A DNA stretch of 64,000 bases from Schmidtea nova (taxonomy: Eukaryota), in NCBI GenBank assembly GCA_044892505.1, contig CM097884.1:82088001-82152000 (forward strand). The letters run 5' to 3'. The stretch's first letter is position 1; each line of letters opens with the position of its first letter. The notes under the pieces are model-generated. The model saw nothing but the letters and a program-made list of their open reading frames with translations, ran no database searches and was not told the DNA's origin. The position numbers and the translations under genes are program-made. Below are positions 7,661 to 59,400 of this stretch, in pieces.

Positions 7661-10565
7661 CAAGGATGCTTTCCCAAAATTAATCAACCGGTTCGCAGTG
7701 ATATTTTCTTACAAATTTTTCTATTTTTTTAATATTAATATTTCCATCAAAATATTATGGTTTGTCAGAGTAGCAGACTAAGTCAAGAATATTTAACTAT
7801 CGTTCATATTCTTTTAAACAATAATGTAATAGGATAAAAGAGAATAAAAAAATAATTCAACGAGGTGAAAATCACTTTTATTTTATTTATTCATTTCAAG
7901 AGATACAAAATTTACATTAAAAAAACTGAACATAACAAAAAATTGTGAAATTTCATATATTAGTAAATATTATTGTTATAAAGTAATTATATTATTTAAA
8001 ATATTTCCAAATAGCTAATTGATTTTCAGTATATTCTTTCGGTTTAGATTTTTTAACCCTGGTGTCATCTGCCGAGTTATGGTTCCTCAACCAAGTTTTT
8101 ACATAGGGAACTGCGTTCCAAGTTTTCAATGGACAACCAACTAAATTTAATGTCATCAAATTTGATATTGTCTGCACTGTTAATCTGGCTCTTATATCAG
8201 TAATTATGATGTTCATCAATGAAAATCCTCGTTCTGCTTCAGTACTGCTAACGGCAACCGTATTAACCATATTTTTCGCTTTTTGAATGTTTTCTGCAAT
8301 TTTACTAATTTGCTGATGGCCGTTGTTTATTATATTTTCTACATAATCACGGAAATCATTCTTATCGATATCAAAATTAAAAACTTTTCGAAATTTATCA
8401 AAATTCTCTTCGGCCTATATCCACGGAACTACAATATCTTCAATTTTCCATGTGCTCGGCTCTAGCAAATTGGCTAGCTCATAAATAATGCATTTATCAA
8501 TATTTTTTTTGTTACTATTTGATCCGAGATGACAGCAATCCATCAATCTTAATTTCATATTTTTTATGATGCTGTCAATAAGGGAATCTCTGGGAAGGTT
8601 TCCATAAATTCTGTTTTCGACGAAGATAATGTTTTTGAATGCTTCAGAGTTTATAACTTCATCCACATTTTTTTCGTAATGACCGCGACGATCTTTGAGA
8701 ATTTGAAAAGCGTTAATTGTTCTTCTAATCAGTTGATCTCCCTTTGCAACATTTATATTTCTAGCTTGAAGGGCATTAGATAGTAGAGAGCACTCCTGTA
8801 GGATGTCAATCATTAGAGCTAAATCTACTAGAAAACATTTGTTTTGTAGTCGTTTTGCCATTCCAGACATTTTTTGGTTAGAAGAGAACAACGTATACAA
8901 AGCAGGGTAGCTCCGCCATACAGCACGCAGCCCATCATGGTCCTAACACTCTTCCAATCTTAATTATATCCAAACTAAGCTCCTGGGAAATATTATTCAG
9001 TTCTTTTTGGTTTTTATTAGATTGATGAAAAATACAATATATTTTGTCCATGAAAAGTTTAAAATGATTAACCTGTTTGATATCGTTTATGGAATCATCT
9101 AAAACAAGTTGTAGACGGTGATTGAGACAGTGCCAAATAATAACATTTGGAAACATCTCTTTTATTCGTACGCTGACTCCAGATTTACAACCGAGCATTA
9201 CGCTAGCACTGCCAGAACAGAATCCTATTAAATTCAGTTTTAAATAATTTGTATCAAATCCAACAGCAAGAAATACACCCAACAAACTTTGAAAAATAGT
9301 ATTCGCATCTTGTGCGTCAAGTTCCACAATATCTACGAACATTATTGGGGATATTTCAGAAGATTCTACTTTGATGAAAACTATAAGCGTTGATTTACTG
9401 GAAATGGTGGAAGCTTCATCAATAACAGTACAAATTTTTAAATTATTCTTAATAATTGATATAAACAATTCTTTTTTAGTTTCTTGCGCGATATGCTCTA
9501 CTATCTTACTTGCACTATGTCGAGAATGAAGTCCGGTTCCCATGTCCAACCCGTATTTTACTTGAAGCTCTATTACACTTTCTATGTCTGAAAACGGACG
9601 GTTTCCTTTCGCTAGACTGTAAACAGTGTTGAAGATTCTTGTAGTAGAACTAATAAATTTCTCGGTCATCTTATCGATGCATGATGTAAAAGTTTGTTTT
9701 TCAAGTATCTTGGCATGTTCATCATCTAGTTTGTGTGCTTTTGATCCAAAATGTTCACTCGTTATTTCCCTCAAAGATGCTTGTTGCACTATTTTGTCTT
9801 TACCCGATGTCGTAACTTTACATTTTTTCCATTCCTGAGATATTAGTTTTGATTCCATTTTTAAACAATACTTACATCCCAATTTCTGATTACTGACAAA
9901 TAGCCCATCATATTTAATTTTAAACTCCTTCAACTGTTTCGCATTCCAACAGCTTGGTAAATTATTATTGTCCTCATTTTGGTAACTAGGAATCTCTAGT
10001 ATTTGTTCCTGCAAAGTTATTGAAACTGCTTCTATCTCTGTTATAGTCGACCTGCTATCATTATTTACTGATGTTTCCTCTCTTATTTTTTCGAGAAATA
10101 TGTGGTTAACATATTTTGTCTCTTCATCTTCAAAAAATAAAATATGTATTTAAAAATAAATTATTTAACTTAAAACATGAAAATAGTTAATTGAACTTAC
10201 CTTACAAAACAAATAATAACTGACAAAATGAAATATTTAGATTAAACTTTTTCAATAGAAATTTCAAATAGATTTAACTTTTACATATATACCTATCTAT
10301 GGTAACTTGATAAAATTTAAAAAATTTTTTATTTTTTTTAAAATTAACTGAAAGATTTCTATAAAGTAAAAAATTAGAATCGCAATGAAAGATAGATAAA
10401 ATTTTCAAATTGTTTATATAAATTTGCACCAAGTGGTAAATAAATTTTATTTAAATAATTTATTTTTTGCGTATTTTTTTTGCCAAAGTAAATAATTTAT
10501 TTTTTTCGCTTATTTTAATAGCCGGTTCGCACGAACCGGTGCGAACCGATAGGAAAGCATCCCTG
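7661..10565 (-). mobile_element. hAT DNA transposon (KIAA1586/ZNF862-like), near full length
   Basis: TIRs are CAAGGATGCTTTCC / GGAAAGCATCCCTG, the 8-bp TSD GATGGATG is perfect (7653-7660, 10566-10573), and it contains an internal transposase. Confidence 0.9.
7992..10130 (-). pseudogene. hAT transposase, KIAA1586/ZNF862-like, broken into three ORFs
   Basis: ORFs 8935-10014 (IDEAST, WHCLNHRLQL), 8415-8900 and 7992-8270 (VSSTEAERGFSLMN...ADDTRVKK) are separated by stops or frameshifts. A probable 5' intron lies near 10130-10200. Confidence 0.85.
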
Positions 10566-11950: not shown

Positions 11951-13251
11951 TATTCTATCCTTTGAAACCCCTTATGTGCAGCTCCTTCATGTGTAAATTA
12001 AAAATTTGTGCTCATTTAAAATTTGAACCCTCTAACCATATTGCGGAGCTAATAAGCCCTGCACATACGGAATTACCCTCACAACTTTCACCACAGAGGA
12101 CGCCCCTCTGCAGTTTAGAAAGTTTAAAAATAATGAATGAATGATTTTATAAAATTTTCATGGCAATAAAAACATGATAGCAACACAAAATCATACTACA
12201 TTCGACAAAGTAAAATTTACCTAAAGTAATCCGTGAAAGTCTATGATTCGATAAACTGACAAAGTCAAGATCGGTTAAATCGCTTGAGCTTTGAAACTAA
12301 TCGGTAATATTCTGATTCTTATGGTTTTGGACTTCAGTATTTATACTGATCTGGTTTGCTAATAGGGCCAATCAGAATCGTTCTACCGCTCAAATTAAGT
12401 TGGTTTTTTATTTATTTGGTAAAAATTTGATAGAGGTTTCAGATAGTGTCTTGTGGATCAACGTCTACTTAATGAATTAATAAAAAAAGTACTTTTATTT
12501 TACCTAATTATCTTAAATTTGTTTTAATCGATTCTAGATACTCTGTATCTCTTGGGTATTACTGCTACTTCTACATTAAATTCTTGAAATGATAATTTTT
12601 CTTTAATCATTTTTCACTATTATTATCTAATTAACAGCTTTAGCCGACTCTGTGAGGCTATTTTAGGGTATTTTTCTATTATTTAAAAATTAAAGAGACA
12701 AAGAAATATTTACTGTTAAAAGAGTCATAGAAAAATAAATCTAAGTCACGTTTTACAAAATTTAAATAGCATCTCTTGTTAACAAAACAGTTATATCGAA
12801 GGTATTTTGAATATTATTTTCATTTGATTGTGACATAATTTGTTTCATTTGGATTTCTGAATCTGGACAATCTTTGTGATTCCTCTGGAAATGAGTAATA
12901 ACAAATTCACCATTTTTTTCAATAAAATCTTTATGAATGTAGAATTCATTATTTTGGAATGCGTTATCAGCTGAAAAATGTAATTATTAAATTACGGAAC
13001 TCAGTTTAAACAGTAAATATATATTTATCAAGTAGCCAATCGGGAAACGGTGAATAAATATTTTGTTGAATTAGAAGTCAAGTATTGTCCGGCCGTAAAG
13101 ATGCACAATCCATACAATAAATGGCAGAGATAAAATGTGTAATAAATCCCTATTGTAGTGCTGAACATAGTGACGTATTATGAAATTAGGAGCCTCTGTG
13201 ATTAGAATTATAAGGAGCCTTACATTTTTTTCATATTTCTTATTTACAAAA

Positions 13252-13442
13252 AGTAGTAGGATGTGTCCCCGTCAGATCAGTTACCCCCCCCCCCCAAATT
13301 TTTTAAAGTTACATAACACCGGACACTTGACCATAACATCACTCGTCCGTGACCAGCACACTTGTGCAAAGACACACTTATGGCACGTGTTTCCAATGGC
13401 AACTACTACTTTTAGAATTTTTTGTATCATCCTCACGTGCCC
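13252..13442 (+). repeat. Left terminal inverted repeat (191 bp)
   Basis: It is the reverse complement of 27459-27648, with about 5 substitutions and a 12 C versus 11 G homopolymer difference. Confidence 0.9.
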
Positions 13443-13558
13443 GGCACGATTATTAACCATTGCATCATCCGCGCGTGCCCGCCATGATTATTGACCAGCA
13501 CACTTATGGGTAGTAACCGGCACACTTAGTGACCAACACACCATCAGGTAATCACTAC

Positions 13559-13682
13559 CCGCCAACCGCCAACCGCCAACAACCAACCGCCAACTGCCCA
13601 CCGCCGACCGCCGACCGCCGACCACCAACCGCCATCCTCCATCCGCCATCCGCCAACCGCCAACCGCCATCCGCCAACCGCC
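13559..13682 (+). repeat. (CCGCCAA)n heptamer tract, left
   Basis: Degenerate tandem CCGCCAA/CCGCCAT/CCGCCGA units. Confidence 0.9.
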
Positions 13683-14084
13683 CACTGCGCTCCGCTGCGC
13701 TCAACTGCGATCCATTAAACTTTCGAAAATCTATATTAGTATTATAATTATATAGTTTTCAAGTTATATAAATGCAAGATTTCTCATAAGGATTCAGATT
13801 CGTAATGCTTTCATGAAGTCCATAAAAGTTTAAAGATATAACATATATTTTTATTCTTAATTCATGCCATTATTTAGAAAATATGTAATCAACTATCTTA
13901 ATGGTAAAAAAATAATCCGGAATGGTCTTTATATAAAAATATACAAGTTTATACAATCTGTTTACTAACTACTTTATCAGTAGTATTTGATAATTTTATT
14001 TAAATTAATCAAATTTATTTTTTAATTAATTTATCTTTATTTCTATATTAGTCAATTATGGTCCGATTTTTATGAAAACTTGTA

Positions 14085-14545
14085 TACATATCAAATTCAA
14101 TATGCTGAATCCGAATTTGTTACAAAAAATAGGAAAAAAAATTAGTCCAAAGTGAGAGTTGAACCTGGGCCTCTCACATATAAAAAAATTTTAAATGATT
14201 TTTCTCGACTAATACTTGTCAGATTTGAACCAAAATTTCTATTTACATCAAATTCAATATGCTGAATCCGAATTTGTTAAAAAAAATAGGAAAAAAAATT
14301 AGTCCAAAGTGGGAGTTGAACCTGGGCCTCTCACATATAAAAAGATTTTAATTGATTTTCTCGACTAATACTTGTGAGATTTTAACCAAAATTTCTATTT
14401 ATATCAAATTCAATACGCTGAATCCGATTCCTTAACAAAATTTTCATAAAAACGGCCAAAGAAAAAATTATTCAACCTTGAGAGTTAAAACTGGGGTCTC
14501 ACAATTAGAAATCCATAGCCTTTCCAACTAAGCTACATTCCACAC
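14085..14545 (-). repeat. ~157-bp tandem repeat (about 3 units) headed by a degenerate tRNA-like sequence, left arm
   Basis: TCAAATTCAA recurs at 14091, 14248 and 14404. The minus strand reads TAGCTTAGTTGGAAAGGC (A-box/D-arm) and GGTTCAACTC (B-box/T-arm). Confidence 0.7.
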
Positions 14546-14599
14546 TTTTAATAAACAAAATTTTAGCATATATTTGATTTTTCTAATCTTTACATAGGT

Positions 14600-14601
<2 letters not shown>

Positions 14602-14667
<66 letters not shown>
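14602..14667. repeat. (AAT)22 microsatellite, mirrored as (ATT)22 at 26061-26126
   Basis: Read directly from the sequence. Confidence 0.95.
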
Positions 14668-14671
<4 letters not shown>

Positions 14672-14783
14672 TACACAAATAAAACTTGACACAAAATAAA
14701 AAAAAAAAGACATTTTCAAATAACAAAATTTATTTCAATAACAATTTTCATTCTGGAAATATCGACATTAAGAACTAGTCATC

Positions 14784-15154
14784 TCAGTCGTTCAATGTAT
14801 TGACTCCTAAATAATGCCCGAATGCAAAACTTTCATTTTTACCCACCCACTGACGCTTATCATCGTTGTTACTTAAAGCAATTTTAGTATTCTTAAAAGT
14901 ATACAATTGATGATTTTGCTTCCCAATTCGAGTTTGAGGAACAGAAAAGATTTGATTATTATTGTAGCAATCAAGATAAGAAAGATGTTTTATCTCAGTT
15001 CCTTCTAAATATACTCCCTTCGCTTTATTACTTTCAGATTCACCCAAAAGACTGTAGCACTTCGGACTTAAGAAAACCCATTCATTGGATCCAAGTCCAA
15101 ATTTGCCAATGACTGAGTCAGGATTTCTTGAATACAATGGATGTTCAGGAATAA
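14784..15154 (-). pseudogene. Protein-primed DNA polymerase B (pPolB) C-terminal fragment, left arm
   Basis: Translation EHPLYSRNPDSVIGKF...LSPKCYS...KAKGV...TKIALSNNDDKRQW...FGHY carries the Polinton pPolB C-terminal motifs KxY, KxKG and DDKR...GH. It is 5'-truncated, with only about the last 125 aa. Confidence 0.85.
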
Positions 15155-17263
15155 CCTATATAGTTTTAATAATAACAATAGTAATATTAATACTTGAAAC
15201 CAATCAAAATGAAACTTGACACATAAAAAAGTCAAATTTCTTTTTTAAAAAACTTGATTTACAAATTTTTTTTCCATTCTTCATCCATACCAGATTTGGT
15301 AAAACAATATGATATAAGTAACTGAATTTGTAGTGATTAGTTGACAACTAGTTAAAAAGTTTCAAAATCTATATATATTGCACAAAACCCTTATTAGCGC
15401 AATAATTAACAAGTTTTGAAGCTAAAGCATGAAAATCAATCCAAATTAGTTAAGTTATCAAAATATTTTAAATATTTCTGTTATTATATATTTATTATAG
15501 AAAAGACATGTTAGTTGATATCAGTTGATAATAGTTAAAAATTAACTAATAATACGTGGTAATCATTATTTTTACAAGTTCTCAATGAAAGTAGTAAACA
15601 ATGATTTAATTATAATTGTAAAAATACTAAGAGAAATTCCTAAGAAAAGTGACTCTCAAAAGTAATTTAAATATCATCTTCAAAAATTTATTAACAAAAA
15701 TTTAGTTTCAAAACTTTTACTCACAAAAATTTAGTTTCAAAAATTTATTCACAGAATTTAGATTCAAAAAATTATTCACAAATTTTAGTTTTAAATTTAT
15801 CCACAGTATTTAGATTAAAATCTATTTTTTACCCAGTTTTTGTTCACTAACCAGTTAGTAACCCATTAATTATTGATAAAATATATACTAATTTGATTTA
15901 TATTTAAAGTTAATTTCGTAATATTTTAAATTAATATATATCATTTGAATACAATTTTAAAAATTACTTTGACTTAAATTAACTTTTGAAACTTAGAATA
16001 AATTTTAGTAAACAAATCTAAATTTTTTCAATTAAAATTGATTTTTTTTCCAAATTGAATTTTGTCGGGAAAATATAGTTAGTTACACAATCAATTTTAT
16101 ACTAATTAATTAAAACTTATTTAAAATTGATGTCTTGAAGATTGGCTACATTAATGAGTTCCAAAATCATTTCAAAATGATACCAGGATATTTATGAATT
16201 TATTTGCAATTATTTATTTTACTAAAAGCAAAAATTATTATCATTTATTTGAAAATATGCGGATTTTTAAATTGAAACTTAAATAAAATTTTAATTGTTG
16301 GCTAATTAAAAGTAATTTTTATAGGTTTAAAATTAATCTAAAATTAAAATAATAATCGATTGATCAATGTACAAAATTTTATATTACTTAGTCAGCAACT
16401 TTAACAATTGAATAATCTTTTAAATAAATTAGACAACTGAATTTTTAAATAAGACGAAAAGAAAAAGAATAATAGAAATTTCTATATGCTTTAATTTCAA
16501 AATTGTAATGCTTAATTTTCAAATATTTTGGTTAATAAAGTATTTATTTTGAACCAAAACTAGTAGTTAGAATACTAAAGTTTACTTTATTATAACATTT
16601 AAAATGAAAAACAAATCAATTTACTCATTATCAATTAGTTACTAATTATTAATAAATTCGATAATAATTTAATACACGTTAAAATTAATTTAAATAGATC
16701 TTTTTAAGAATTGATTTCATTAGATTTCAAAAATTTTTAGAATAAATTTTAAAATATTTTTAATAAAAGAACTAAATGCAATAAACTCGATTGATTGACA
16801 ACCATTGACAACAAACTCATTTGTGCAATAAGATGTTTTGTCAGCGTATTTATTATCACTAGGTTATGAAACCATTAATGAATGCTGTTTTTATGTATTG
16901 ATTGAAGAAAACATGTAATAAAAACTAAAATCAACCAATTAAATTATCCAAATTCGCTCCAGTGTGTACATTATTTGTATAACATGTGGTATTTTTATAC
17001 TGATATTTTCCTATCGATTTGAATACAATTACTATACATTGCTACAAAAATCACTAAATTTCGGTATTAAACTGATATAACTCAAATTGAGGCTCCATTT
17101 TAAAATTACTTGCACCTTTTTAATTGATATTCATCATAAAACCTATTTAATTATCGATTTAACCGTTATAATGTATTATACCTCCATATTTCTTAGTATT
17201 CTCAAAAGTATAACACAATTTATCACGTAATTATATAAAATCAGTATTGATAAATTTTAAATA

Positions 17264-17760
17264 AAATAGCTACAAACTTCTTAGTTCAATAAAACTTACT
17301 CAAATATGTCGTTAACTTTGAAATAACTCTTAAGAAACCGCATAAAATCACCAAATTAAACGTGAAAATTTTATCAAATCTTATTACTCTTGATATTATT
17401 AATATCTTTACTAAATTATCACATGATCCATCATTGAAAATTACATTATTATTCTGCTAAATTAAAATACCAGTAAATTAATTAAATTGTTAATAAAAAT
17501 TGTTAATAACAAAACACAATTTATGAAATAGCTACAAACTTCTTAGTTCAATAAAACTTACTCAAATATGTCATTAATTCTGAAATAACACTTAAGAAAC
17601 TGCATAAAATCCCCAATTAAAACGTGAAAATTTTATCAAATCTTATTAATCTTGATATTATTAATATCTTTACTAAATTATCACATGATCCATCATTGAA
17701 AATTACATTATTATTCTGGTATATATTAAAAAATCATTAAATTAATTGTTAATAAAAAGC
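17264..17760. repeat. ~262-bp tandem duplication inside the arm (mirrored at about 22969-23465)
   Basis: AAATAGCTACAAACTTCTTAGTTC occurs at 17264 and 17526. The two units are diverged from each other but are the same in both arms. Confidence 0.85.
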
Positions 17761-19380
17761 TATGTAGTCATATATATTTTAAAATCCCATAAAAATGACC
17801 AAATATCATTCAAATCATGACAAAAAGCTATTTTGTCATATATAATTTAAAATCACATTAAAATCACAACAAATCATCCAAAACTCAATATTCAAGTCAT
17901 TATAACTGATACTGACTATGCTTAGTGGCTTTGAGTTTCAAATTTTACCATAAAGTAATCAATAAATAATCCTAAAATTTGATATAATCTGAATTAAAAG
18001 TTTCGACCATTTAATTAACAAAGAATATTGAATTAACACAAAATTATTTACGTTAAGACATTTCAAATTATCAACATTACTTGATATAAATCCTTAACTT
18101 CATTGAATTTCCATAAAATCAATTAATTACATAAATCACCTGTTAAAATTTATTTTACATCTAAATTCTTTCAATTATCTTCATAAATTTTCCACAATTC
18201 ACTTAAAAATTGTAATGAAATTACTTTGGAAGTTATTTGAATTTTTATTAGTTTGCTATAAAATTATTATAATCACTGTAATAATCGAAAATATTTATAA
18301 TCACTGTAATAATCTAAATTTTAGTCATAACCTTTGATTAAATTGACATTAATTTCAATCTTAAATATATTTTAAATTTAATGAAATCAATAATTTGCAT
18401 AAAATATTAATTGAGAGAAAATAAGTTGGAAATTTTAAAAAGAAATTTGAAATACAATCAATGTGTATTTCTAAAATATTAATTATCTTTGAATTTAATT
18501 AGAATAAATTGTATTTAATTTTAGCAAATATTTAGTTTATTTCGAAAAAAGTATTTGAATTATTGCCAAATAAAAAGTCATGGTAACTAAATATAATTAT
18601 AATATTATGATTTTAATTTAGAATTAATTAATTTGCATGATGATTTCTGAATTTAATTTTAATGTAGAATTAAATACTGGTCATTTATATTTTGTGAAGA
18701 AATTCCTATTACTAATTTTAAAAAATCAAAGTTATTTTAAAAAGTTTCAAATAATACACATTAAAATCTATATAAATAGTATATAAGTGAATATACAATA
18801 TGAATCTTTTACAGGTAAAAACCATCACAAAAGAGGTTCTGCTACCAAAGGTTCTGTTAGAAAGGTTCTGATACTAAGGATATATTAGAAAAGTTCTGAT
18901 ACTGAATATAATTGTTAATAATGAATTTTACCAAAATATTTATTGATTTTTCATTTTAAATATTTTCAGTGAATTATTAATATTAATAATTTTTATTATT
19001 ACCACGTAATAATTTTGTAACATTAAATCTGTTTCGATTGTTTTTTATGATATTTATAAAAGTTGATATAATATGAAAAATTTATTCACAAAGGGCAGTT
19101 TATGTATGTGATGCAGTTATCTGTTTGTGTATAGTAACTTTTCATTGAATTGTGTCAGTTTTTATCATAATTCGATGCATTACATTATTTTTTGATATAA
19201 TCTGTCTATTAAAAGATTTTGCATAAATAATTAATTATCATATTAAAATAAAGTGTGTATCTGCACACAAAAATATCAATAAATAAAAATTAATAAAAAT
19301 GTTAAACGAAATCTGATTGGTCAATTTAAATTATGAAAACATATATATAAATTGATTAAAAATTACAGATTTCATTAAAA

Positions 19381-19921
19381 ATGTATCAACTTAAAAGTAA
19401 GTTTAAATAATTTTAAATGATTATTTTTAATATTTTATTCTAGAATCTTCGAACAAAAAGATGTTGAAACAAGAAGTAATGAAAATTATTCTTGAAGAAA
19501 ATTCTATTTCGGCATCAAATTTGGTTAGGAATCCTGCAGTTCAATTTCTACAATACTCGATGGAATATTTAAAATTTCCAATAATTTATTCATTTAAAGT
19601 ATATATTTATTTAATTAAAATAAATTTCTAATAATTATTTTATAGGAACCTGTTACATTGAAACAATGCATGTATAATCTTCAAGTGGGGAAAATTGGAG
19701 ATATTGATAGACGAAATATTTCAGAAATTTTGTTAGCAATCAACAAAGAAATACAATTTAATGAAGCTTTTACGTATATGAATTGCATTAAAGATTGTAA
19801 TTTGAAAAATCCCGATGAAAATTCAATATATTAAATTAAGATAATGATTCAAGGCTTCAAAGAATCTAATGATGTTGTCAAACCTGTTTGGAAAATTATA
19901 GAAACAAATATATGTGAATAA
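19381..19921 (+). CDS. Spliced orphan gene (3 exons): 119 aa, or 148 aa if the in-frame TAA is a lesion; left arm
   Basis: Exons 19381-19396, 19444-19598 and 19646-19834 are joined in frame by two 47-nt GT-AG introns. The product is MYQLKKSSNKKMLKQEVMKIILEENS...NPDENSIY*. The frame stays open for 28 more codons to a TAA overlapping AATAAA at 19919-19921. Confidence 0.65.
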
Positions 19922-20751
19922 AATTTATTTATCAAATCTTATCTTTTCATTTCATTTTATTTTATTTTATTTTATTGTTTGTTTTGGTTAATTTAAATTT
20001 TTAATAAAAATTATTTTTTGTGTTAAATTTATTACCAAATATTTAAAATCGATTAATTTTTTATTAAAATAAAAATAATTAATTTTTTATTTTATTTTAT
20101 TTTTTGTTTTGGTTAATTTAAATTTTTAATAACAATTATTTTTTGTTTTAAATTTATTACCAAATATTTAAAATCGATTAGTTTTTTATTAAATAAAAAT
20201 AATTAATTTTATTATCATAATTAATCTAAATTGATTTTGTTTTAATAATTGATTATACGTTTAAAATTAAAATTCAAATTAATTTTCTTTAATATTTCCC
20301 GGCAACAATAATTAATTCGGAATTTGATATATATTCGAATATATATCAAATTCCGAATTAATTATTGTTGCCGGGAAATATTAAAGAAAATTAATTTGAA
20401 TTTTAATTTTAAACGTATAATCAATTATTAAAACAAAATCAATTTAGATTAATTATGATAATAAAATTAATTATTTTTATTTAATAAAAAACTAATCGAT
20501 TTTAAATATTTGGTAATAAATTTAAAACAAAAAATAATTGTTATTAAAAATTTAAATTAACCAAAACAAAAAATAAAATAAAATAAAAAATTAATTATTT
20601 TTATTTTAATAAAAAATTAATCGATTTTAAATATTTGGTAATAAATTTAACACAAAAAATAATTTTTATTAAAAATTTAAATTAACCAAAACAAACAATA
20701 AAATAAAATAAAATAAAATGAAATGAAAAGATAAGATTTGATAAATAAATT

Positions 20752-21292
20752 TTATTCACATATATTTGTTTCTATAATTTTCCAAACAGGTTTGACAACA
20801 TCATTAGATTCTTTGAAGCCTTGAATCATTATCTTAATTTAATATATTGAATTTTCATCGGGATTTTTCAAATTACAATCTTTAATGCAATTCATATACG
20901 TAAAAGCTTCATTAAATTGTATTTCTTTGTTGATTGCTAACAAAATTTCTGAAATATTTCGTCTATCAATATCTCCAATTTTCCCCACTTGAAGATTATA
21001 CATGCATTGTTTCAATGTAACAGGTTCCTATAAAATAATTATTAGAAATTTATTTTAATTAAATAAATATATACTTTAAATGAATAAATTATTGGAAATT
21101 TTAAATATTCCATCGAGTATTGTAGAAATTGAACTGCAGGATTCCTAACCAAATTTGATGCCGAAATAGAATTTTCTTCAAGAATAATTTTCATTACTTC
21201 TTGTTTCAACATCTTTTTGTTCGAAGATTCTAGAATAAAATATTAAAAATAATCATTTAAAATTATTTAAACTTACTTTTAAGTTGATACAT
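20752..21292 (-). CDS. Mirror copy of the spliced orphan gene, right arm
   Basis: It is the reverse complement of 19381-19921, with the ATG at 21290-21292. Confidence 0.65.
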
Positions 21293-24200
21293 TTTTAATG
21301 AAATCTGTAATTTTTAATCAATTTATATATATGTTTTCATAATTTAAATTGACCAATCAGATTTCGTTTAACATTTTTATTAATTTTTATTTATTGATAT
21401 TTTTGTGTGCAGATACACACTTTATTTTAATATGATAATTAATTATTTATGCAAAATATATGATAATTAATTATTTATGCAAAATATATGATAATTAATT
21501 ATTTATGCAAAATCTTTTAATAGACAGATTATATCAAAAAATAATGTAATGCATCGAATTATGATAAAAACTGACACAATTCAATGAAAAGTTACTATAC
21601 ACAAACAGATAACTGCATCACATACATAAACTGCCCTTTGTGAATAAATTTTTCATATTATATCAACTTTTATAAATATCATAAAAAACAATCGAAACAG
21701 ATTTAATGTTACAAAATTATTACGTGGTAATAATAAAAATTATTAATATTAATAATTCACTGAAAATATTTAAAATGAAAAATCAATAAATATTTTGGTA
21801 AAATTCATTATTAACAATTATATTCAGTATCAGAACTTTTCTAATATATCCTTAGTATCAGAACCTTTCTAACAGAACCTTTGGTAGCAGAACCTCTTTT
21901 GTGATGGTTTTTACCTGTAAAAGATTCATATTGTATATTCACTTATATACTATTTATATAGATTTTAATGTGTATTATTTGAAACTTTTTAAAATAACTT
22001 TGATTTTTTAAAATTAGTAATAGGAATTTCTTCACAAAATATAAATGACCAGTATTTAATTCTACATTAAAATTAAATTCAGAAATCATCATGCAAATTA
22101 ATTAATTCTAAATTAAAATCATAATATTATAATTATATTTAGTTACCATGACTTTTTATTTGGCAATAATTCAAATACTTTTTTCGAAATAAACTAAATA
22201 TTTGCTAAAATTAAATACAATTTATTCTAATTAAATTCAAAGATAATTAATATTTTAGAAATACACATTGATTGTATTTCAAATTTCTTTTTAAAATTTC
22301 CAACTTATTTTCTCTCAATTAATATTTTATGCAAATTATTGATTTCATTAAATTTAAAATATATTTAAGATTGAAATTAATGTCAATTTAATCAAAGGTT
22401 ATGACTAAAATTTAGATTATTACAGTGATTATAAATATTTTCGATTATTACAGTGATTATAATAATTTTATAGCAAACTAATAAAAATTCAAATAACTTC
22501 CAAAGTAATTTCATTACAATTTTTAAGTGAATTGTGGAAAATTTATGAAGATAATTGAAAGAATTTAGATGTAAAATAAATTTTAACAGGTGATTTATGT
22601 AATTAATTGATTTTATGGAAATTCAATGAAGTTAAGGATTTATATCAAGTAATGTTGATAATTTGAAATGTCTTAACGTAAATAATTTTGTGTTAATTCA
22701 ATATTCTTTGTTAATTAAATGGTCGAAACTTTTAATTCAGATTATATCAAATTTTAGGATTATTTATTGATTACTTTATGGTAAAATTTGAAACTCAAAG
22801 CCACTAAGCATAGTCAGTATCAGTTATAATGACTTGAATATTGAGTTTTGGATGATTTGTTGTGATTTTAATGTGATTTTAAATTATATATGACAAAATA
22901 GCTTTTTGTCATGATTTGAATGATATTTGGTCATTTTTATGGGATTTTAAAATATATATGACTACATAGCTTTTTATTAACAATTAATTTAATGATTTTT
23001 TAATATATACCAGAATAATAATGTAATTTTCAATGATGGATCATGTGATAATTTAGTAAAGATATTAATAATATCAAGATTAATAAGATTTGATAAAATT
23101 TTCACGTTTTAATTGGGGATTTTATGCAGTTTCTTAAGTGTTATTTCAGAATTAATGACATATTTGAGTAAGTTTTATTGAACTAAGAAGTTTGTAGCTA
23201 TTTCATAAATTGTGTTTTGTTATTAACAATTTTTATTAACAATTTAATTAATTTACTGGTATTTTAATTTAGCAGAATAATAATGTAATTTTCAATGATG
23301 GATCATGTGATAATTTAGTAAAGATATTAATAATATCAAGAGTAATAAGATTTGATAAAATTTTCACGTTTAATTTGGTGATTTTATGCGGTTTCTTAAG
23401 AGTTATTTCAAAGTTAACGACATATTTGAGTAAGTTTTATTGAACTAAGAAGTTTGTAGCTATTTTATTTAAAATTTATCAATACTGATTTTATATAATT
23501 ACGTGATAAATTGTGTTATACTTTTGAGAATACTAAGAAATATGGAGGTATAATACATTATAACGGTTAAATCGATAATTAAATAGGTTTTATGATGAAT
23601 ATCAATTAAAAAGGTGCAAGTAATTTTAAAATGGAGCCTCAATTTGAGTTATATCAGTTTAATACCGAAATTTAGTGATTTTTGTAGCAATGTATAGTAA
23701 TTGTATTCAAATCGATAGGAAAATATCAGTATAAAAATACCACATGTTATACAAATAATGTACACACTGGAGCGAATTTGGATAATTTAATTGGTTGATT
23801 TTAGTTTTTATTACATGTTTTCTTCAATCAATACATAAAAACAGCATTCATTAATGGTTTCATAACCTAGTGATAATAAATACGCTGACAAAACATCTTA
23901 TTGCACAAATGAGTTTGTTGTCAATGGTTGTCAATCAATCGAGTTTATTGCATTTAGTTCTTTTATTAAAAATATTTTAAAATTTATTCTAAAAATTTTT
24001 GAAATCTAATGAAATCAATTCTTAAAAAGATCTATTTAAATTAATTTTAACGTGTATTAAATTATTATCGAATTTATTAATAATTAGTAACTAATTGATA
24101 ATGAGTAAATTGATTTGTTTTTCATTTTAAATGTTATAATAAAGTAAACTTTAGTATTCTAACTACTAGTTTTGGTTCAAAATAAATACTTTATTAACCA

Positions 24201-25574
24201 AAATATTTGAAAATTAAGCATTACAATTTTGAAATTAAAGCATATAGAAATTTCTATTATTCTTTTTCTTTTCGTCTTATTTAAAAATTCAGTTGTCTAA
24301 TTTATTTAAAAGATTATTCAATTGTTAAAGTTGCTGACTAAGTAATATAAAATTTTGTACATTGATCAATCGATTATTATTTTAATTTTAGATTAATTTT
24401 AAACCTATAAAAATTACTTTTAATTAGCCAACAATTAAAATTTTATTTAAGTTTCAATTTAAAAATCCGCATATTTTCAAATAAATGATAATAATTTTTG
24501 CTTTTAGTAAAATAAATAATTGCAAATAAATTCATAAATATCCTGGTATCATTTTGAAATGATTTTGGAACTCATTAATGTAGCCAATCTTCAAGACATC
24601 AATTTTAAATAAGTTTTAATTAATTAGTATAAAATTGATTGTGTAACTAACTATATTTTCCCGACAAAATTCAATTTGGAAAAAAAATCAATTTTAATTG
24701 AAAAAATTTAGATTTGTTTACTAAAATTTATTCTAAGTTTCAAAAGTTAATTTAAGTCAAAGTAATTTTTAAAATTGTATTCAAATGATATATATTAATT
24801 TAAAATATTACGAAATTAACTTTAAATATAAATCAAATTAGTATATATTTTATCAATAATTAATGGGTTACTAACTGGTTAGTGAACAAAAACTGGGTAA
24901 AAAATAGATTTTAATCTAAATACTGTGGATAAATTTAAAACTAAAATTTGTGAATAATTTTTTGAATCTAAATTCTGTGAATAAATTTTTGAAACTAAAT
25001 TTTTGTGAGTAAAAGTTTTGAAACTAAATTTTTGTTAATAAATTTTTGAAGATGATATTTAAATTACTTTTGAGAGTCACTTTTCTTAGGAATTTCTCTT
25101 AGTATTTTTACAATTATAATTAAATCATTGTTTACTACTTTCATTGAGAACTTGTAAAAATAATGATTACCACGTATTATTAGTTAATTTTTAACTATTA
25201 TCAACTGATATCAACTAACATGTCTTTTCTATAATAAATATATAATAACAGAAATATTTAAAATATTTTGATAACTTAACTAATTTGGATTGATTTTCAT
25301 GCTTTAGCTTCAAAACTTGTTAATTATTGCGCTAATAAGGGTTTTGTGCAATATATATAGATTTTGAAACTTTTTAACTAGTTGTCAACTAATCACTACA
25401 AATTCAGTTACTTATATCATATTGTTTTACCAAATCTGGTATGGATGAAGAATGGAAAAAAAATTTGTAAATCAAGTTTTTTAAAAAAGAAATTTGACTT
25501 TTTTATGTGTCAAGTTTCATTTTGATTGGTTTCAAGTATTAATATTACTATTGTTATTATTAAAACTATATAGG

Positions 25575-25945
25575 TTATTCCTGAACATCCATTGTATTCA
25601 AGAAATCCTGACTCAGTCATTGGCAAATTTGGACTTGGATCCAATGAATGGGTTTTCTTAAGTCCGAAGTGCTACAGTCTTTTGGGTGAATCTGAAAGTA
25701 ATAAAGCGAAGGGAGTATATTTAGAAGGAACTGAGATAAAACATCTTTCTTATCTTGATTGCTACAATAATAATCAAATCTTTTCTGTTCCTCAAACTCA
25801 AATTGGGAAGCAAAATCATCAATTGTATACTTTTAAGAATACTAAAATTGCTTTAAGTAACAACGATGATAAGCGTCAGTGGGTGGGTAAAAATGAAAGT
25901 TTTGCATTCGGGCATTATTTAGGAGTCAATACATTGAACGACTGA
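25575..25945 (+). pseudogene. pPolB C-terminal fragment, right arm
   Basis: Mirror copy that differs by one codon (QTQIG versus QTRIG). Confidence 0.85.
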
Positions 25946-26056
25946 GATGACTAGTTCTTAATGTCGATATTTCCAGAATGAAAATTGTTATTGAAATAAA
26001 TTTTGTTATTTGAAAATGTCTTTTTTTTTTATTTTGTGTCAAGTTTTATTTGTGTA

Positions 26057-26128
<72 letters not shown>

Positions 26129-26182
26129 ACCTATGTAAAGATTAGAAAAATCAAATATATGCTAAAATTTTGTTTATTAAAA

Positions 26183-26643
26183 GTGTGGAATGTAGCTTAG
26201 TTGGAAAGGCTATGGATTTCTAATTGTGAGACCACAGTTTTAACTCTCAAGGTTGAATAATTTTTTCTTTGGCCGTTTTTATGAAAATTTTGTTAAGGAA
26301 TCGGATTCAGCGTATTGAATTTGATATAAATAGAAATTTTGGTTAAAATCTCACAAGTATTAGTCGAGAAAATCAATTAAAATTTTTTTATATGTGAGAG
26401 GCCCAGGTTCAACTCCCACTTTGGACTAATTTTTTTTCCTATTTTTTTTAACAAATTCGGATTCAGCATATTGAATTTGATGTAAATAGAAATTTTGGTT
26501 CAAATCTGACAAGTATTAGTCGAGAAAAATCATTTAAAATTTTTTTATATGTGAGAGGCCCAGGTTCAACTCTCACTTTGGACTAATTTTTTTTCCTATT
26601 TTTTGTAACAAATTCGGATTCAGCATATTGAATTTGATATGTA
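26183..26643 (+). repeat. Mirror copy of the tRNA-like / 157-bp repeat, right arm
   Basis: It is the reverse complement of 14085-14545 with about 2 substitutions. Confidence 0.7.
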
Positions 26644-27043
26644 TACAAGTTTTCATAAAAATCGGACCATAATTGACTAATATAGAAATAAAGATAAATT
26701 AATTAAAAAATAAATTTGATTAATTTAAATAAAATTATCAAATACTACTGATAAAGTAGTTAGTAAACAGATTGTATAAACTTGTATATTTTTATATAAA
26801 GACCATTCCGGATTATTTTTTTACCATTAAGATAGTTGATTACATATTTTCTAAATAATGGCATGAATTAAGAATAAAAATATATGTTATATCTTTAAAC
26901 TTTTATGGACTTCATGAAAGCATTACGAATCTGAATCCTTATGAGAAATCTTGCATTTATATAACTTGAAAACTATATAATTATAATACTAATATAGATT
27001 TTCGAAAGTTTAATGGATCGCAGTTGAGCGCAGCGGAGCGCAG

Positions 27044-27187
27044 TGGGCGGTTGGCGGATGGCGGTTGGCGGTTGGCGGTTGGCGGTTGGCGGTTGGCGGT
27101 TGGCGGTTGGCGGTTGGCGGATGGCGGTTGGCGGTTGGCGGTTGGCGGATGGCGGATGGCGGATGGAGGATGGCGGTTGGTGGTCGG
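27044..27187 (+). repeat. (GGCGGTT)n heptamer tract, right
   Basis: Tandem GGCGGTT/GGCGGAT units; the copy number differs from the left tract. Confidence 0.9.
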
Positions 27188-27458
27188 ATTTTTGGTCTGG
27201 TATTTTTGAATAGGATTTTTGGTCTGGTATTTTTGAATAGGATTTTTGGTCTGGTATTTTTGAATAGGATTTTTGGTCTGGTTATTTTGAATAGAGAATT
27301 TTGGGTCGATCTTTTGTATAGGAAATTTTTGTCGGTCTTTTTGTATAGGATTTTCTATTCCGAGATTTTTCTCGGCCAAAAAGGGACGCTGGTATTTTTG
27401 TACATGGAATTTTGGTCTGGTATTTTTGTATAGGATTTTGGTCTGGTTATTTTGAACA
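27188..27458 (+). repeat. Right-end-specific ~29-bp tandem repeat (GGATTTTTGGTCTGGTATTTTTGAATA..)
   Basis: Several near-identical copies are followed by degenerate ones. It has no counterpart in the left end, where 13443-13558 is a different sequence. Confidence 0.85.
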
Positions 27459-27648
27459 GGGCACGTGCGGATGATACAAAAAATTCTGAAAGTAGTAGTT
27501 GCCATTGGAAACACGTGCCATAAGTGTGTCTTTGCACAAGTTTGCTGGTCACGTACGAGTGATGTAATGGTCAAGTGTCCGGTGTTATGTAACTTTAAAA
27601 AATTTGGGGGGGGGGGTAACTGATCTGACGGGGACACATCCTACTACT
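27459..27648 (-). repeat. Right terminal inverted repeat (190 bp)
   Basis: It is the reverse complement of 13252-13442. Confidence 0.9.
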
Positions 27649-27818
27649 ACAAAAATAAAAAACGTGATTATTTTAAAAGAAAAATTTAATTCAAGAACCA
27701 AAACAAGTAATAATGTAATATAGATAAATAAATATAATAACATATAAAAAGAAAATAATCCGAAAAGAATAAACATAAAAAGAATAAATAAACACAGTTC
27801 TTTGACAGCATAAATTAA

Positions 27819-43635: not shown

Positions 43636-46445
43636 TAGGGTTCGGAATCCCGGGATCCCGAAATCCCGAAATCCCGGGATCCCGCAATTTTTAGCAATCC
43701 CGAAATCCCGGGATCGAGCACTTGATCCCGGGATTTGACTTTTTAAGCCTAAAAGGAAAAATACCTTACAGTTTCCTTAAAAATTCTTTAAAACAATCGT
43801 TTTTGGTTGAACATTTTCAAATTTAAATTTTTTCGGTTGAGATTTGAATTTTGTCATATAGAAAATACTTGGAATTTTTTTTGCATTCAAATTCTTAAAA
43901 TATATATTTTAAAAATCGAAATTCTTGGAACTTTTTTTTTCAATATTCAATTTGTAATTATATTCTTAAAATTTTTTGTTGGCGCTCAGACGTAATTAGT
44001 ATATAATTGTTTTCACGTGTTATTGTTTTTGATTATTTTAAAGTGTAGATTTAATTAAATTATCATTCGCACTATTTGAACAACAAATTTTAAAAATATA
44101 ATGGCTTCTTACATAGACCATGAAAAGAAAAGTAATTCTGCTGTTTGGAAACATTTTTTACGAGAAGAAAAAGGACAGACAGCGATGTGTAAGTATACCG
44201 ACTGCAAAAAAATTCTAAAAATTGGGGGTGGGTCAACGAAAGGTCTCCATACGCATCTACTTTCCGTCCATAAAATTAACATCACAACAGCTACTACTTC
44301 GGCTAACACATCAGATGAACCACCAACAAAAAAATCGAAAACGTTAACCAAGTATTTTCCGATGCTGGAACGAGAAGAAAAATCACTTCCTGCTACACTT
44401 GCAAGGTTAACCGCACTTGATGGGATTTCATTTAATGTTATATGCCGTTCTTCTGATTTACGTGCAGGTCTTATAGCAACAGGATTCAAAAGTTTACCTA
44501 CAACAGTCAACACAGTGCGCAAAATAGTTGTAGATTACAGCAAAAAAATTAAGAATTCATTAATTACGGAAATAGATGGCAAAAAAAACCCACAATTCGG
44601 TGTTGGTGAGAGATTTTCCTTATCGTTTGATGAATGGACATCACTACGTAACCGTCGGTACACGAATATTAATTTACATGCTCAAAATTGTCAGTTCTGG
44701 AGCTTAGGCTTAATTCGAATAACAGGATCAATGCCTGCAGATAAATGTATTGAGCTCCTAGAACAAAAGCTCGCAGAATATGGACTTGATTTGCGAAAAG
44801 ATATCGTCGGAATTATGACTGACGGAGCAAGTGTAATGAAAAAAGTTGGGAGATTATTACCTGTAAATCAACAATTATGTTTTGCCCATGGTGTGCAACT
44901 GGCCGTAATTGAAGTACTATATCAAAAGCAAAATATAGAAACAGATCAGCAATTTGACGAAGACGAACAATCAGAGGTAGAACACGATTTTTCGGAGAGT
45001 AACGACGATGAAATTTTTTCTGACAACGAATAATTGGTTGATCTCGATTCTGGTCATAGGCATGGAGGAAACCAAAGTGATGTTACTGAGATAAATTCCG
45101 CTCCAGTGATCAAAAAGGTACGAAAATTGATAGTAATGTTCAGACGATCGCCAACAAAAAACGATATCTTGCAGAAATATGTTGCGGCTGAATTTGGGAA
45201 GCAAATAACTCTAATAAAAGATTGCAAGACTAGGTGGAACAGCCTTTTGTCAATGCTTGAACGTATCTATTTATTAAAAAATTGTATTCAAAAGGCATTG
45301 ATAGACATAAGTCTACCTGAAGGTGAATCATTTTCTTTATCTAATGATGAGCTTAAAATGATATCTTCTATCATTAGTGCTCTAGTACCAGTAAAAGCAA
45401 CAGTCGAGGCCCTTTGTCGTCGGGATGCTAGTCTGTTCACAGCCGATGTTGCTATAACTTTTATGTTAAAAAAACTTAAAGATTCTAACAACGTTATATG
45501 TCAAAATTTGCATAAGGCGGATATATACAAAGGCGGACAGATATCAGTGGTGTACTTCAGTATTTACATAATGGTAGGACAAACGTTCAGTCCGAATCTG
45601 AAATAGCGCTCGTAACAGTTCCATCTGCCGTAAAATGTCGCAAAATAATAGTTGAGTTACTCGAAAGATTAGATGCTGCAAATTCAGCTACAGCACTAAC
45701 AGCTCATGAGTCCGAAGTTGAATCTTCTGTTTCAAATGAGGCACCTATCGAAATTGTTTCAGATTCTTCTGATTCTCCATCTGAATCTCTTTCCTTTTCT
45801 CTTGAACAACCTTTAACTATTGCAGACGAGCTCAATAAAGCTATAAAACAAGCACATTTTCCGAGGATGCCAATTCGATGTGAGATGCTGTCAGCGAAAA
45901 TTCAAAAGGAAATGGTATTGTTTGAAAATGGAGGAACACGTGGTGATTTTTTGCAAAGAGCGTATGATTTTCTAATGACAATCAAACCAACCAGTGTAGA
46001 GTCCGAACGAGCCTTTTCTGCGGCCGGACTTTTTGCAACGAAAATAAGAAGTCGTATGGGCAATGAAACTTTGGATGCACTATGCTTTCTTAAAAGTTAT
46101 TTGATGTATGAATTTGATGTATAATATTATAAAAACATTTATTTTCTTTATAATTTAATAAACTATTTTTTATAAACTTATTTTTGAATGTGTCATTTTT
46201 TTTAAATACCTGTTCTTGAAATATATTAACGGGATTTTTAAATACCTGTTCTTGAAATATATTAACATATTATTTTAACAAAATTAATCTCTTTCTTTTT
46301 CTATTAATTTGGTTAAAATAGTATGTTAATATATTTCAAGAACATGTATTTAAAATTCCCGGGACTAATCCCGGGATCCCGGGATTAGGAAAATGCAATC
46401 CCGAAATCCCGGGATTGAAAATATAGCACGGGATTGCCAACCCTA
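43636..46445 (+). mobile_element. hAT DNA transposon (BED-finger, ZBED-type), near full length
   Basis: TIRs are TAGGGTTCGGAATCCCG / CGGGATTGCCAACCCTA, with subterminal ATCCCG arrays and a perfect 8-bp TSD GGTGGGCA. Confidence 0.92.
44101..46124 (+). pseudogene. hAT transposase with BED zinc finger, disrupted
   Basis: Motifs VWKHF...CKYTDCKKIL...STKGLHTHL, FDEWTS, CFAHGVQL, TRWNS and PTSVESERAFS are present. There is a stop at 45031-45033 and a frameshift near 45520. Confidence 0.9.
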
Positions 46446-58533: not shown

Positions 58534-59400
58534 TTATTCTAAAATTCTCATTCTTTCTGGGAGTTCTCTATTCCATGAATCATAATCATACAATCCGTGT
58601 TTAATTATTGATTGGCGATATTCTGACGCTGTCGTAATTAAAGGTACTAGTGCACATAACAAGCGGCTGCTTCGTGGAAATAATAAAGCATACTCTAAGT
58701 CTTCAAAGGTGATGTGAGACAATTTCAGATGCTCTTCCAGCATCAGATCCATCCCCAAACCTTGGAATGCTGCACTGATAAATTCTACAAATTGGATAAG
58801 CTCAGTGCAATTATTCAGTGTTTCATAATCAATTTCTGAGACGTTTCCTAGAAACCATTCATCGAATGTTCGGATAAATTGCTGATGTCGGCGTTTGTCT
58901 TGCCATTTTCGAAATTTTATAATTAAAATATCGATCGGATCCTGCTGGAATTCAGTGTTGTCGGAAAACATTGAGGAAATAGTTCCGAATTTCTCCATTT
59001 CATCTAACATTGCTTTGATTGATGTTACCAATCGGATGTCGGTACTAAATGCTCGGTCTGTACACCGACGCCGCAACATTCCGCTTTCCGCAATTTCCTG
59101 ATATTTAGTTGCCAATTTGCCCATTTTCGAATCACAGCCAAAATATCGATAGCAATTAAATAGCATAAAACGAAAATCACACACAAACTCCTTGATATTG
59201 AGATAATCTGGACTTTCCATTTTATCATGCATTTCATTGAGACATATTGGTTCTTTGACAATACTTGTATAATCATTTAGATGGAGCTTTTTTGGATCAA
59301 TTGGGTTTAAAAATGGACGAGTAATAATTGAATAACTACTAGACATGATGCTTGTTAGGATATTGCGAGCAAAATTCATTTCAATCGACGAATTCATCAT
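58534..59400 (-). CDS. Bromodomain protein, BRD10/KIAA2026-like N-terminal region (288 aa, single exon, probably truncated)
   Basis: Motifs PFLNPIDP...DYTSIVKEPICL...EFVCDFRFMLFNCYRY define the bromodomain, and LEYALLFPRSSRLL...YDSWNREL resembles the KIAA2026 downstream region. Confidence 0.75.
   Translation of the reverse strand: MMNSSIEMNFARNILTSIMSSSYSIITRPFLNPIDPKKLHLNDYTSIVKEPICLNEMHDKMESPDYLNIKEFVCDFRFMLFNCYRYFGCDSKMGKLATKYQEIAESGMLRRRCTDRAFSTDIRLVTSIKAMLDEMEKFGTISSMFSDNTEFQQDPIDILIIKFRKWQDKRRHQQFIRTFDEWFLGNVSEIDYETLNNCTELIQFVEFISAAFQGLGMDLMLEEHLKLSHITFEDLEYALLFPRSSRLLCALVPLITTASEYRQSIIKHGLYDYDSWNRELPERMRILE

Follow-up and report, generated by a model that had tools for sequence, protein, structure and literature searches.

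The window, meaning the whole 64,000-nucleotide stretch of Schmidtea nova DNA that was analyzed, contains a 14,397-bp palindromic, non-autonomous Polinton/Maverick (13252..27648, 5'-AGTAGT...ACTACT-3'), flanked by copies of the 6-bp target-site duplication ACAAAA (left, 13246..13251; right, 27649..27654). The same end motif and a 6-bp duplication have been reported for Mavericks (PMC8097293). The inverted arms meet at 20336/20337 without a spacer, and this axis lies within a 60-bp core palindrome (20307..20366) that occurs once per element here. Moving inward from the left end, the arm comprises a terminal repeat (13252..14745, plus strand) that is 90–96% identical to the TIRs of complete Polintons of the likely helper family (L164-L171, L174/L175); a remnant of the pPolB 3' end (14784..15155, minus strand; mirror 25574-25945, plus strand), which has indels and matches the cognate family at 85–90% DNA identity; a segment of a ~128-bp repeat unit (18760..18874, plus strand) that forms tandem arrays in other copies and resembles a motif upstream of the intronless homolog in another Polinton family; and a remnant of the pPolB 5' end (19092..19190, minus strand; mirror 21539-21637, plus strand), which is head-to-head with a small gene, as in complete Polintons. 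The gene set of an autonomous Polinton is absent: the arm retains only the two pPolB remnants, with no intact pPolB, integrase, ATPase, protease or capsid gene. By its sequence affinities the arm appears to be a chimera, one Polinton family accounting for its TIR and polymerase 3' remnant, and a lineage close to a second family for the spliced gene and the polymerase 5' remnant. The right arm alone has 56 extra bases, equal to two more 28-bp units (21430..21485, plus strand), and its subterminal segment (27197..27459, plus strand) has no counterpart at the left end or at other sampled termini. Over 140 bp this segment shows 86% identity with repeats found in the polymerase-only palindromes described below, and apparently reflects recombination between Polinton families near the terminus. 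Elsewhere in the window are a Bromodomain/KIAA2026-like ORF (58534-59400, minus strand), BED-zinc-finger hAT-like transposase pieces (44101-45033, plus strand) and a second transposase-like remnant with no Pfam assignment (8415-9858, minus strand).

The small gene, preceded by CCAAT-type (ATTGG) and TATA motifs (19316..19351, plus strand), is a three-exon Polinton gene of 148 codons (19381..19921, plus strand; exons 19381-19396, 19444-19598 and 19646-19921) whose product is a predicted OB-fold SSB. Its exons and two 47-nt GT-AG introns are exactly where a preliminary description of this locus had placed them, followed, also as described, by an in-frame TAA after 119 codons (codon 120, 19832..19834; mirror 20839-20841), 28 more codons, and a second TAA (19919-19921) inside an AATAAA (19917-19922). 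The internal stop lies upstream of the last two predicted beta-strands. The mirror copy (20752..21292, minus strand) matches at 593/593 compared bases and has the same internal stop, the two terminal stops are 830 bp apart in tail-to-tail orientation, and the poly(A) signals of both copies lie before the palindrome center.

A copy that is 75% identical at the DNA level is present in complete Polintons of the L105/L107 type, where the CCAAT and TATA motifs, the ATG, the open frame and the two introns, of 49 and 45 nt and in unchanged positions, are kept. Compared with the L107 homolog, the window gene has a dN/dS of 0.13 at a dS of 1.36, and the two other frames hold 10–16 stops. Because the homolog keeps the ATG, both intron sites and the frame at this dN/dS, the gene model goes beyond chance, and we regard it as a real intron-type gene, with predicted splicing, inside a Maverick/Polinton-derived palindrome. 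Contigs from four public runs, none of them recorded as RNA, contain no splice joints, which bears neither way on splicing. The ratio itself reads as purifying selection measured across autonomous ancestry. It does not speak for selection inside the palindromes, because of that ancestry, because the polymerase remnant gives a similar ratio (0.13–0.19), and because young copies are ~99% alike.

Homologs and Candidate Helper Elements

The preliminary description took the gene to be an orphan, captured from the host as cargo. Homologs, however, occur in four complete Polinton families of this genome and in one outside contig. In the L105/L107-type elements the copy is head-to-head with pPolB in 13 of 13 fetched loci, and the window preserves this order, with the remnant of the polymerase N-terminus beside the gene. 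Intronless homologs were found in all five Polintons with the cognate TIR and all three of a sister family (tblastn E 1e-7 to 3e-6, 37-locus set); they lie near the left end in three families, one of them the cognate helper family (28% identity), and the one in L098 gives a Smith-Waterman z of 8.0–8.5 (0/2000 shuffles). Outside this genome, metagenome contig L180 carries two tandem intron-type paralogs adjoining a TBP-like gene, whose GT-AG introns, one in each paralog, differ in position, and P0001 is a 60%-identical exon-3 product without genomic context.

Other searches define the reach of these results. The gene was undetected in polymerase-side stretches of one further Polinton family (6 loci) and in the polymerase-only palindromes. 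Word-index protein searches over limited length classes returned no match for exon 3 or for L098 and only P0001 for alignment A3. HMMER over representative proteins gave two matches, of which P0002 was dropped as a repeat protein with 34 residues matched. Scans of viral contigs found the gene in 0/3 and 0/56 candidates, and scans of metagenomes in 0/427 and then 1/322 (L180). No host-type homolog appeared among the best 150 scored candidates per genome search. The homology search once proposed for finding a donor pointed elsewhere: every relative found with context is Polinton-borne or beside a Polinton-type TBP-like gene. A protein tree, unrooted and with long branches, separates the two-intron group from the intronless and L180 sequences at 100/99. 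From these sequence comparisons we take the gene to be a native Polinton gene, and its introns appear to be lineage-specific, with no mark of host origin; introns in a Maverick gene need not mean host capture. What stands of the original interpretation is a real intron-type gene in a Maverick/Polinton-derived palindrome; what falls is host capture and, as shown below, a TAA older than the fold-back.

Five of the eight long terminus pairs that were fetched are complete Polintons of 15.3–17.1 kb, with TIRs 90–96% identical to the window's first 1.4 kb and a polymerase end 83–90% identical to the window remnant; in the remaining three the likeness is limited to the extreme terminus. The window element thus has TIRs in common with complete Polintons of the same genome (90–96% over 1.4 kb, five elements), as a non-autonomous derivative should. 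All five candidate helpers have 6-bp duplications, and they encode an integrase, A32-like ATPase, adenovirus-type protease and TBP-like protein (Pfam), plus a pPolB ORF. By position and size, the 407-aa and 353-aa ORFs of the complete elements are putative major and minor capsid genes; Pfam and PDB sequence searches gave no confirmation of this. PF03175 served to locate polymerase types, although hmmscan reported it for the L153 ORF and not for those of L090, L107 and L165. Given the shared ends, target duplications and copy number, we infer mobilization in trans, in which complete Polintons with the same TIR would supply polymerase, integrase and perhaps capsid. The TBP-like protein (PF00352, E down to 2e-18; L098:7988-8479, L108:4225-4746, L164:3681-4148, L180:2728-3135) is encoded next to the ATPase or SSB-like gene in complete Polintons here and in contig L180. 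In the helper family, between an exonuclease-like ORF and pPolB, there is also what looks like a further small gene, split into multiple exons by several short GT-AG introns (L165:3250-3740).

The Palindrome Family

Exact occurrences in the genome number 521 for the 38-bp center motif, 1237 and 1209 on the two strands for the 19-bp terminus, and 1236 for a 39-mer of exon 3, with 0 for all reversed-pattern controls; the last figure is at odds with the single duplication event that had been described. Twenty copies were sampled from opposed pairs of the polymerase remnant, which biases the sample to two-armed copies. Both arms meet at the window's center base in 9 of the 20 (14.3–15.5 kb), one arm reaches the center and the other is deleted in 5, 1 is truncated on both arms, and 5 belong to a subfamily with a different center and without the gene. 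A 6-bp duplication is present in 14 of the 15 copies with both ends located, three of which allow an extra AGT unit. Close pairs make up 16 of the first 50 listed center sites. In three such copies, from another subfamily, the 60-bp core palindrome occurs once per arm around an AT array, and in another the center is locally duplicated, so the folding points appear to have been re-made more than once. A resemblance of the 3' AT-rich center to the TIR of another family was considered and rejected (score 77.9, vs. 59–102 for 20 shuffles).

The gene-free subfamily (L039:6500-8130; also L041, L043, L064 and L076) has the same outer arms and, at its different center, ~400 bp more arm and a ~0.8–1.1-kb spacer in either orientation. 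By eye, this spacer looks like a decayed small-GTPase-like fragment. At another locus (G000:C1:43058852-43085789) three forward gene copies are followed by three reverse copies at ~5.8-kb spacing, which we read as a tandemly amplified arm within one palindrome. A 954-bp tandem array made of a decayed piece of the gene was seen at L010/L013.

The genome also holds palindromes that contain polymerase only, about 15–16 kb long and of two polymerase types (L090-L097, L103/L104, L142, L153). Four complete cases were chosen as opposed pairs and two further loci, one of the second polymerase type, were not so chosen; at three loci of the first type no mirror arm was found within the stretch fetched. 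These palindromes measure 14.8–15.8 kb, with 6.9–7.4-kb arms at 99.6–99.96% identity, and their only long ORFs are two intact pPolB frames (1,265–1,315 aa) arranged head-to-head.

Compared with known Polintons/Mavericks (PMC8097293; 10.1101/2023.08.22.554363), the window element shares the (AGT)2 ends, 6-bp duplication, near-unit length, and TIR and polymerase remnants, and differs in lacking an integrase, capsid, ATPase and intact polymerase. Its inverted repeat takes up the entire element, with 7-kb arms and nothing between them, in contrast to the 100–1500 bp given for Polintons/Mavericks in those sources, and its native gene is of intron type, whereas intact vertebrate Maverick ORFs are there described as intronless. 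Nematode Maverick cargo (wasp, krma; 10.1101/2022.07.12.499685) is likewise an intron-containing gene inside a Maverick. Unlike that cargo, the gene reported here is conserved from one Polinton family to another and has relatives that lack introns, and no host gene related to it appeared among the best 150 scored candidates; nor does it sit in the variable cargo region of an autonomous element. The nearest described parallel to the palindrome, by analogy, would seem to be the AAV snap-back genome (PMC8235507), which is also self-complementary from one parent end, helper-dependent, with a promoter and gene next to the fold, and can in principle give dsRNA or extra protein. Derivation from one parent end with self-complementarity is seen here too, though with an arm that is chimeric between two Polinton lineages. 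The present element differs from AAV in being a protein-primed dsDNA element rather than a parvovirus, and in being integrated and inherited, with one fixed center in hundreds of copies.

Predicted Fold of the Gene Product

Searches of Pfam, PHROGs, PDB sequences and the ESM Atlas with the gene product gave no match (the ESM Atlas was blank twice, with low recognition), and a single-sequence fold model reached a pLDDT of only 32. The protein modeled further was not that of the window, but its 25%-identity homolog from L098, for which a 13-row alignment gave a pLDDT of 71.7 and a pTM of 0.66 (2/5 models confident). This model is a beta-barrel with one helix of 14 residues (62-75) after the N-terminal strands, a candidate counterpart of the long capping helix that directly follows strand beta-2 in T7 gp2.5-type proteins. 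Foldseek of the L098 model against a viral library returned four matches at E ≤ 0.001, all giant-virus proteins, followed by weaker matches to baculovirus SSB/DNA-binding proteins (E 0.014–0.06), and Foldseek against the PDB returned nothing at E ≤ 0.001 (E > 0.1). In a search of 48,161 chains of solved structures the best match was ASFV CP312R (Z 6.5, rmsd 4.0, 127 aligned), which is below the tool's own caution line of 8; T7 gp2.5 (Z 5.0, rmsd 3.9, 102 aligned), the Enc34 SSB (Z 4.8, rmsd 3.9, 100 aligned) and a DUF2815 protein (Z 4.6, rmsd 3.6, 95 aligned) were also found. These longest structural alignments (95–127 residues) are interleaved with unrelated OB folds of Z 4–5.4.

CP312R is described as an OB-fold protein that binds ssDNA (PMC9963768), T7-like SSBs are described as virus-specific and present in giant viruses, and protein-primed replicons commonly encode an SSB (PMC4889955). 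With these models and matches, the protein probably has an OB fold and more likely than not functions as an SSB. Its predicted barrel with a putative capping helix is like those of T7 gp2.5-type SSBs and CP312R, its best and longest structural matches (PMC4889955, PMC5686142, PMC9963768). Unlike them it is small (138–148 aa), with 5–11% identity, moderate Z scores and no acidic C-terminal tail of the kind found in phage T7-type SSBs, and it resides in a protein-primed element, a class whose reviewed SSBs are non-OB or form a separate phi29/Bam35 group (PMC8276246). The middling scores among many unrelated OB folds, the missing acidic tail, and the position next to a TBP-like gene in several families would also suit an OB-like barrel with some job other than that of a replicative SSB, such as end protection, RNA or protein binding, or transcription together with the neighboring TBP-like protein. 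We consider this unlikely, as the longest structural alignments are those to CP312R and T7-type SSBs, the gene is linked head-to-head with pPolB in one family, and an SSB is common in protein-primed replicons. Since the window's internal stop aligns to residue 110 of the L098 model, before the last two strands bearing the invariant QG.K and P.W motifs, it would remove two C-terminal strands, and the window copy would be non-functional and not fold. A Polinton OB-fold SSB, if real, would supply a component lacking from the protein-primed machinery and connect that machinery with giant-virus SSBs.

Age of the Stop Codon and Origin of Arm Symmetry

From its presence in both arms, the internal TAA had been thought to predate the fold-back. 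Hundreds of copies have the same center without the stop, and private changes routinely sit in both arms; the stop is therefore younger than the center. An exact 40-mer with the stop occurs four times in the genome, in the two window arms and two single copies. The gene is intact in 22 of 25 copies from 14 sampled young elements, and none of the young copies compared has the window's stop. Of 16 diverged loci that cover the codon, 14 have a stop at this position and 2 are mixed. The search behind these figures passes over frequent words, which favors the rare allele carried by the window, but an older stop-bearing lineage may exist.

Private changes in the window number five in both arms and one in one arm. 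The corresponding counts are 80 vs. 61 over 14 copies and 108 vs. 13 over 5 subfamily copies, some of these "private" variants being clustered and likely recombinant tracts. In one copy, each arm carries a 1,730-bp Tigger/pogo-like insertion at the mirrored position, and the two are 100% identical. Because copy-specific changes often sit in both arms, one arm appears to be re-copied onto the other, and on this sequence pattern the re-copying is likely at each mobilization. Copies split into mostly-both and mostly-one classes (17/1 and 16/0 both/one vs. 0/13 and 0/16; chi-square p 1e-10), so that a symmetry reset at insertion fits better than steady gene conversion; a rank correlation of both-arm with one-arm counts over the copies falls short of significance (rho -0.41, p 0.19). 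Arms differ near their ends in several copies (91–94% over ~400 bp), which a pure hairpin template would not give, and recombination must therefore be at work too.

The reading we favor, with moderate confidence, is that the gene is native to Polintons, has predicted splicing and likely encodes a viral-type OB-fold SSB, and that it rides on a helper-dependent palindrome whose arms are likely re-copied with each move. A helper polymerase would prime at the shared terminus and displace a strand, and the displaced single strand would fold back over its full length, much as in AAV snap-back genomes. When one arm was lost or cut it would be re-made on the other, giving a symmetric copy, and the integrase would insert the symmetric duplex. 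Intact gene copies could supply SSB for the long single strands of protein-primed strand-displacement synthesis, and the stop in the window copy would have arisen after the center was fixed. Kapitonov and Jurka reportedly put forward a strand-displacement/fold-back replication model for Polintons in 2006; we know of no direct observation of Polinton replication. How strands are templated is recorded in hundreds of dated palindromic copies that share a fixed hinge, which makes the model testable from sequence alone. Palindrome lengths are near those of complete elements (14.3–15.5 kb, from biased sampling, vs. 15.0–17.1 kb), a similarity that would agree with the packaging limit proposed for Mavericks (PMC8097293).

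The young copies are ~99% identical, so the 22 intact genes out of 25 are uninformative about selection, and the native gene could be a mere passenger, kept intact by one recent master palindrome whose arms stay alike through chromosomal inverted-repeat gene conversion. The spread of the related subfamily without the gene (5 of 20 sampled) and the failure to homogenize the terminal 400 bp agree with this. Copies with 13 and 16 one-arm changes and none in both arms do not, nor do the one-arm deletions and a nested Polinton that persist unconverted, or the 1.7-kb insertion in both arms, and we rate this account as rather unlikely, though the most serious of the competing accounts of the element as a whole.

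Far less probable is the original model, in which a captured host gene, present in tail-to-tail copies, gives rise to a long hairpin RNA acting to silence both the gene and its homologs. The introns, promoter and poly(A) motifs do look host-like, nematode Mavericks carry intron-containing cargo (10.1101/2022.07.12.499685), the convergent genes end 830 bp from each other in arms that meet without a spacer, and engineered tail-to-tail AAV snap-back dimers lowered Rep expression (PMC8235507). Yet each homolog found with context is either carried by a Polinton or adjacent to a TBP-like gene of Polinton type, T7-like SSBs are reported to be virus-specific (PMC4889955), and the poly(A) signals precede the center. 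Only 14 of 957 21-mers are common to the nearest complete-Polinton homolog and 0 of 957 to the cognate-helper homolog, so any hairpin RNA would mainly affect its own family. Taken singly, some read-through RNA across the center is plausible but less likely than not, a functional silencing role is improbable, and host capture is highly improbable. That the palindrome is a fold-back artefact of assembly or amplification is next to excluded: no listed public contig piece bridges the center by 31 bases on both sides, as short contigs are not expected to, but the unique flanks bear a 6-bp duplication, 14 of 15 copies have target duplications, the same center recurs at 521 places, and the arms differ by real indels.

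Set beside the favored reading, the contents of the different palindromes allow a broader and quite speculative proposal, to which we assign a low probability. One palindrome family retains two putative SSB genes; in at least two more, a pair of intact protein-primed polymerases is all that is left. Polinton replication might thus be divided among capsid-sized palindromic satellites, with integrase and capsid coming from complete Polintons. Such satellites would act as cooperating subgenomes and raise replication throughout the whole Polinton population, and a T7-type OB-fold SSB would be an unrecognized core Polinton gene. Non-autonomous Polintons are already known. Our searches of a mostly open-access literature turned up neither fully palindromic Polintons nor a Polinton SSB with an OB fold, and passages of an eri-6/7 Polinton paper, a review and an animal genome paper on Maverick expansion hold nothing on palindromic Polintons. 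Near-identical sequence, set aside in this analysis, was also seen at very low depth in the runs of a second organism, reflecting either contamination, maybe from the same study, or recent transfer.
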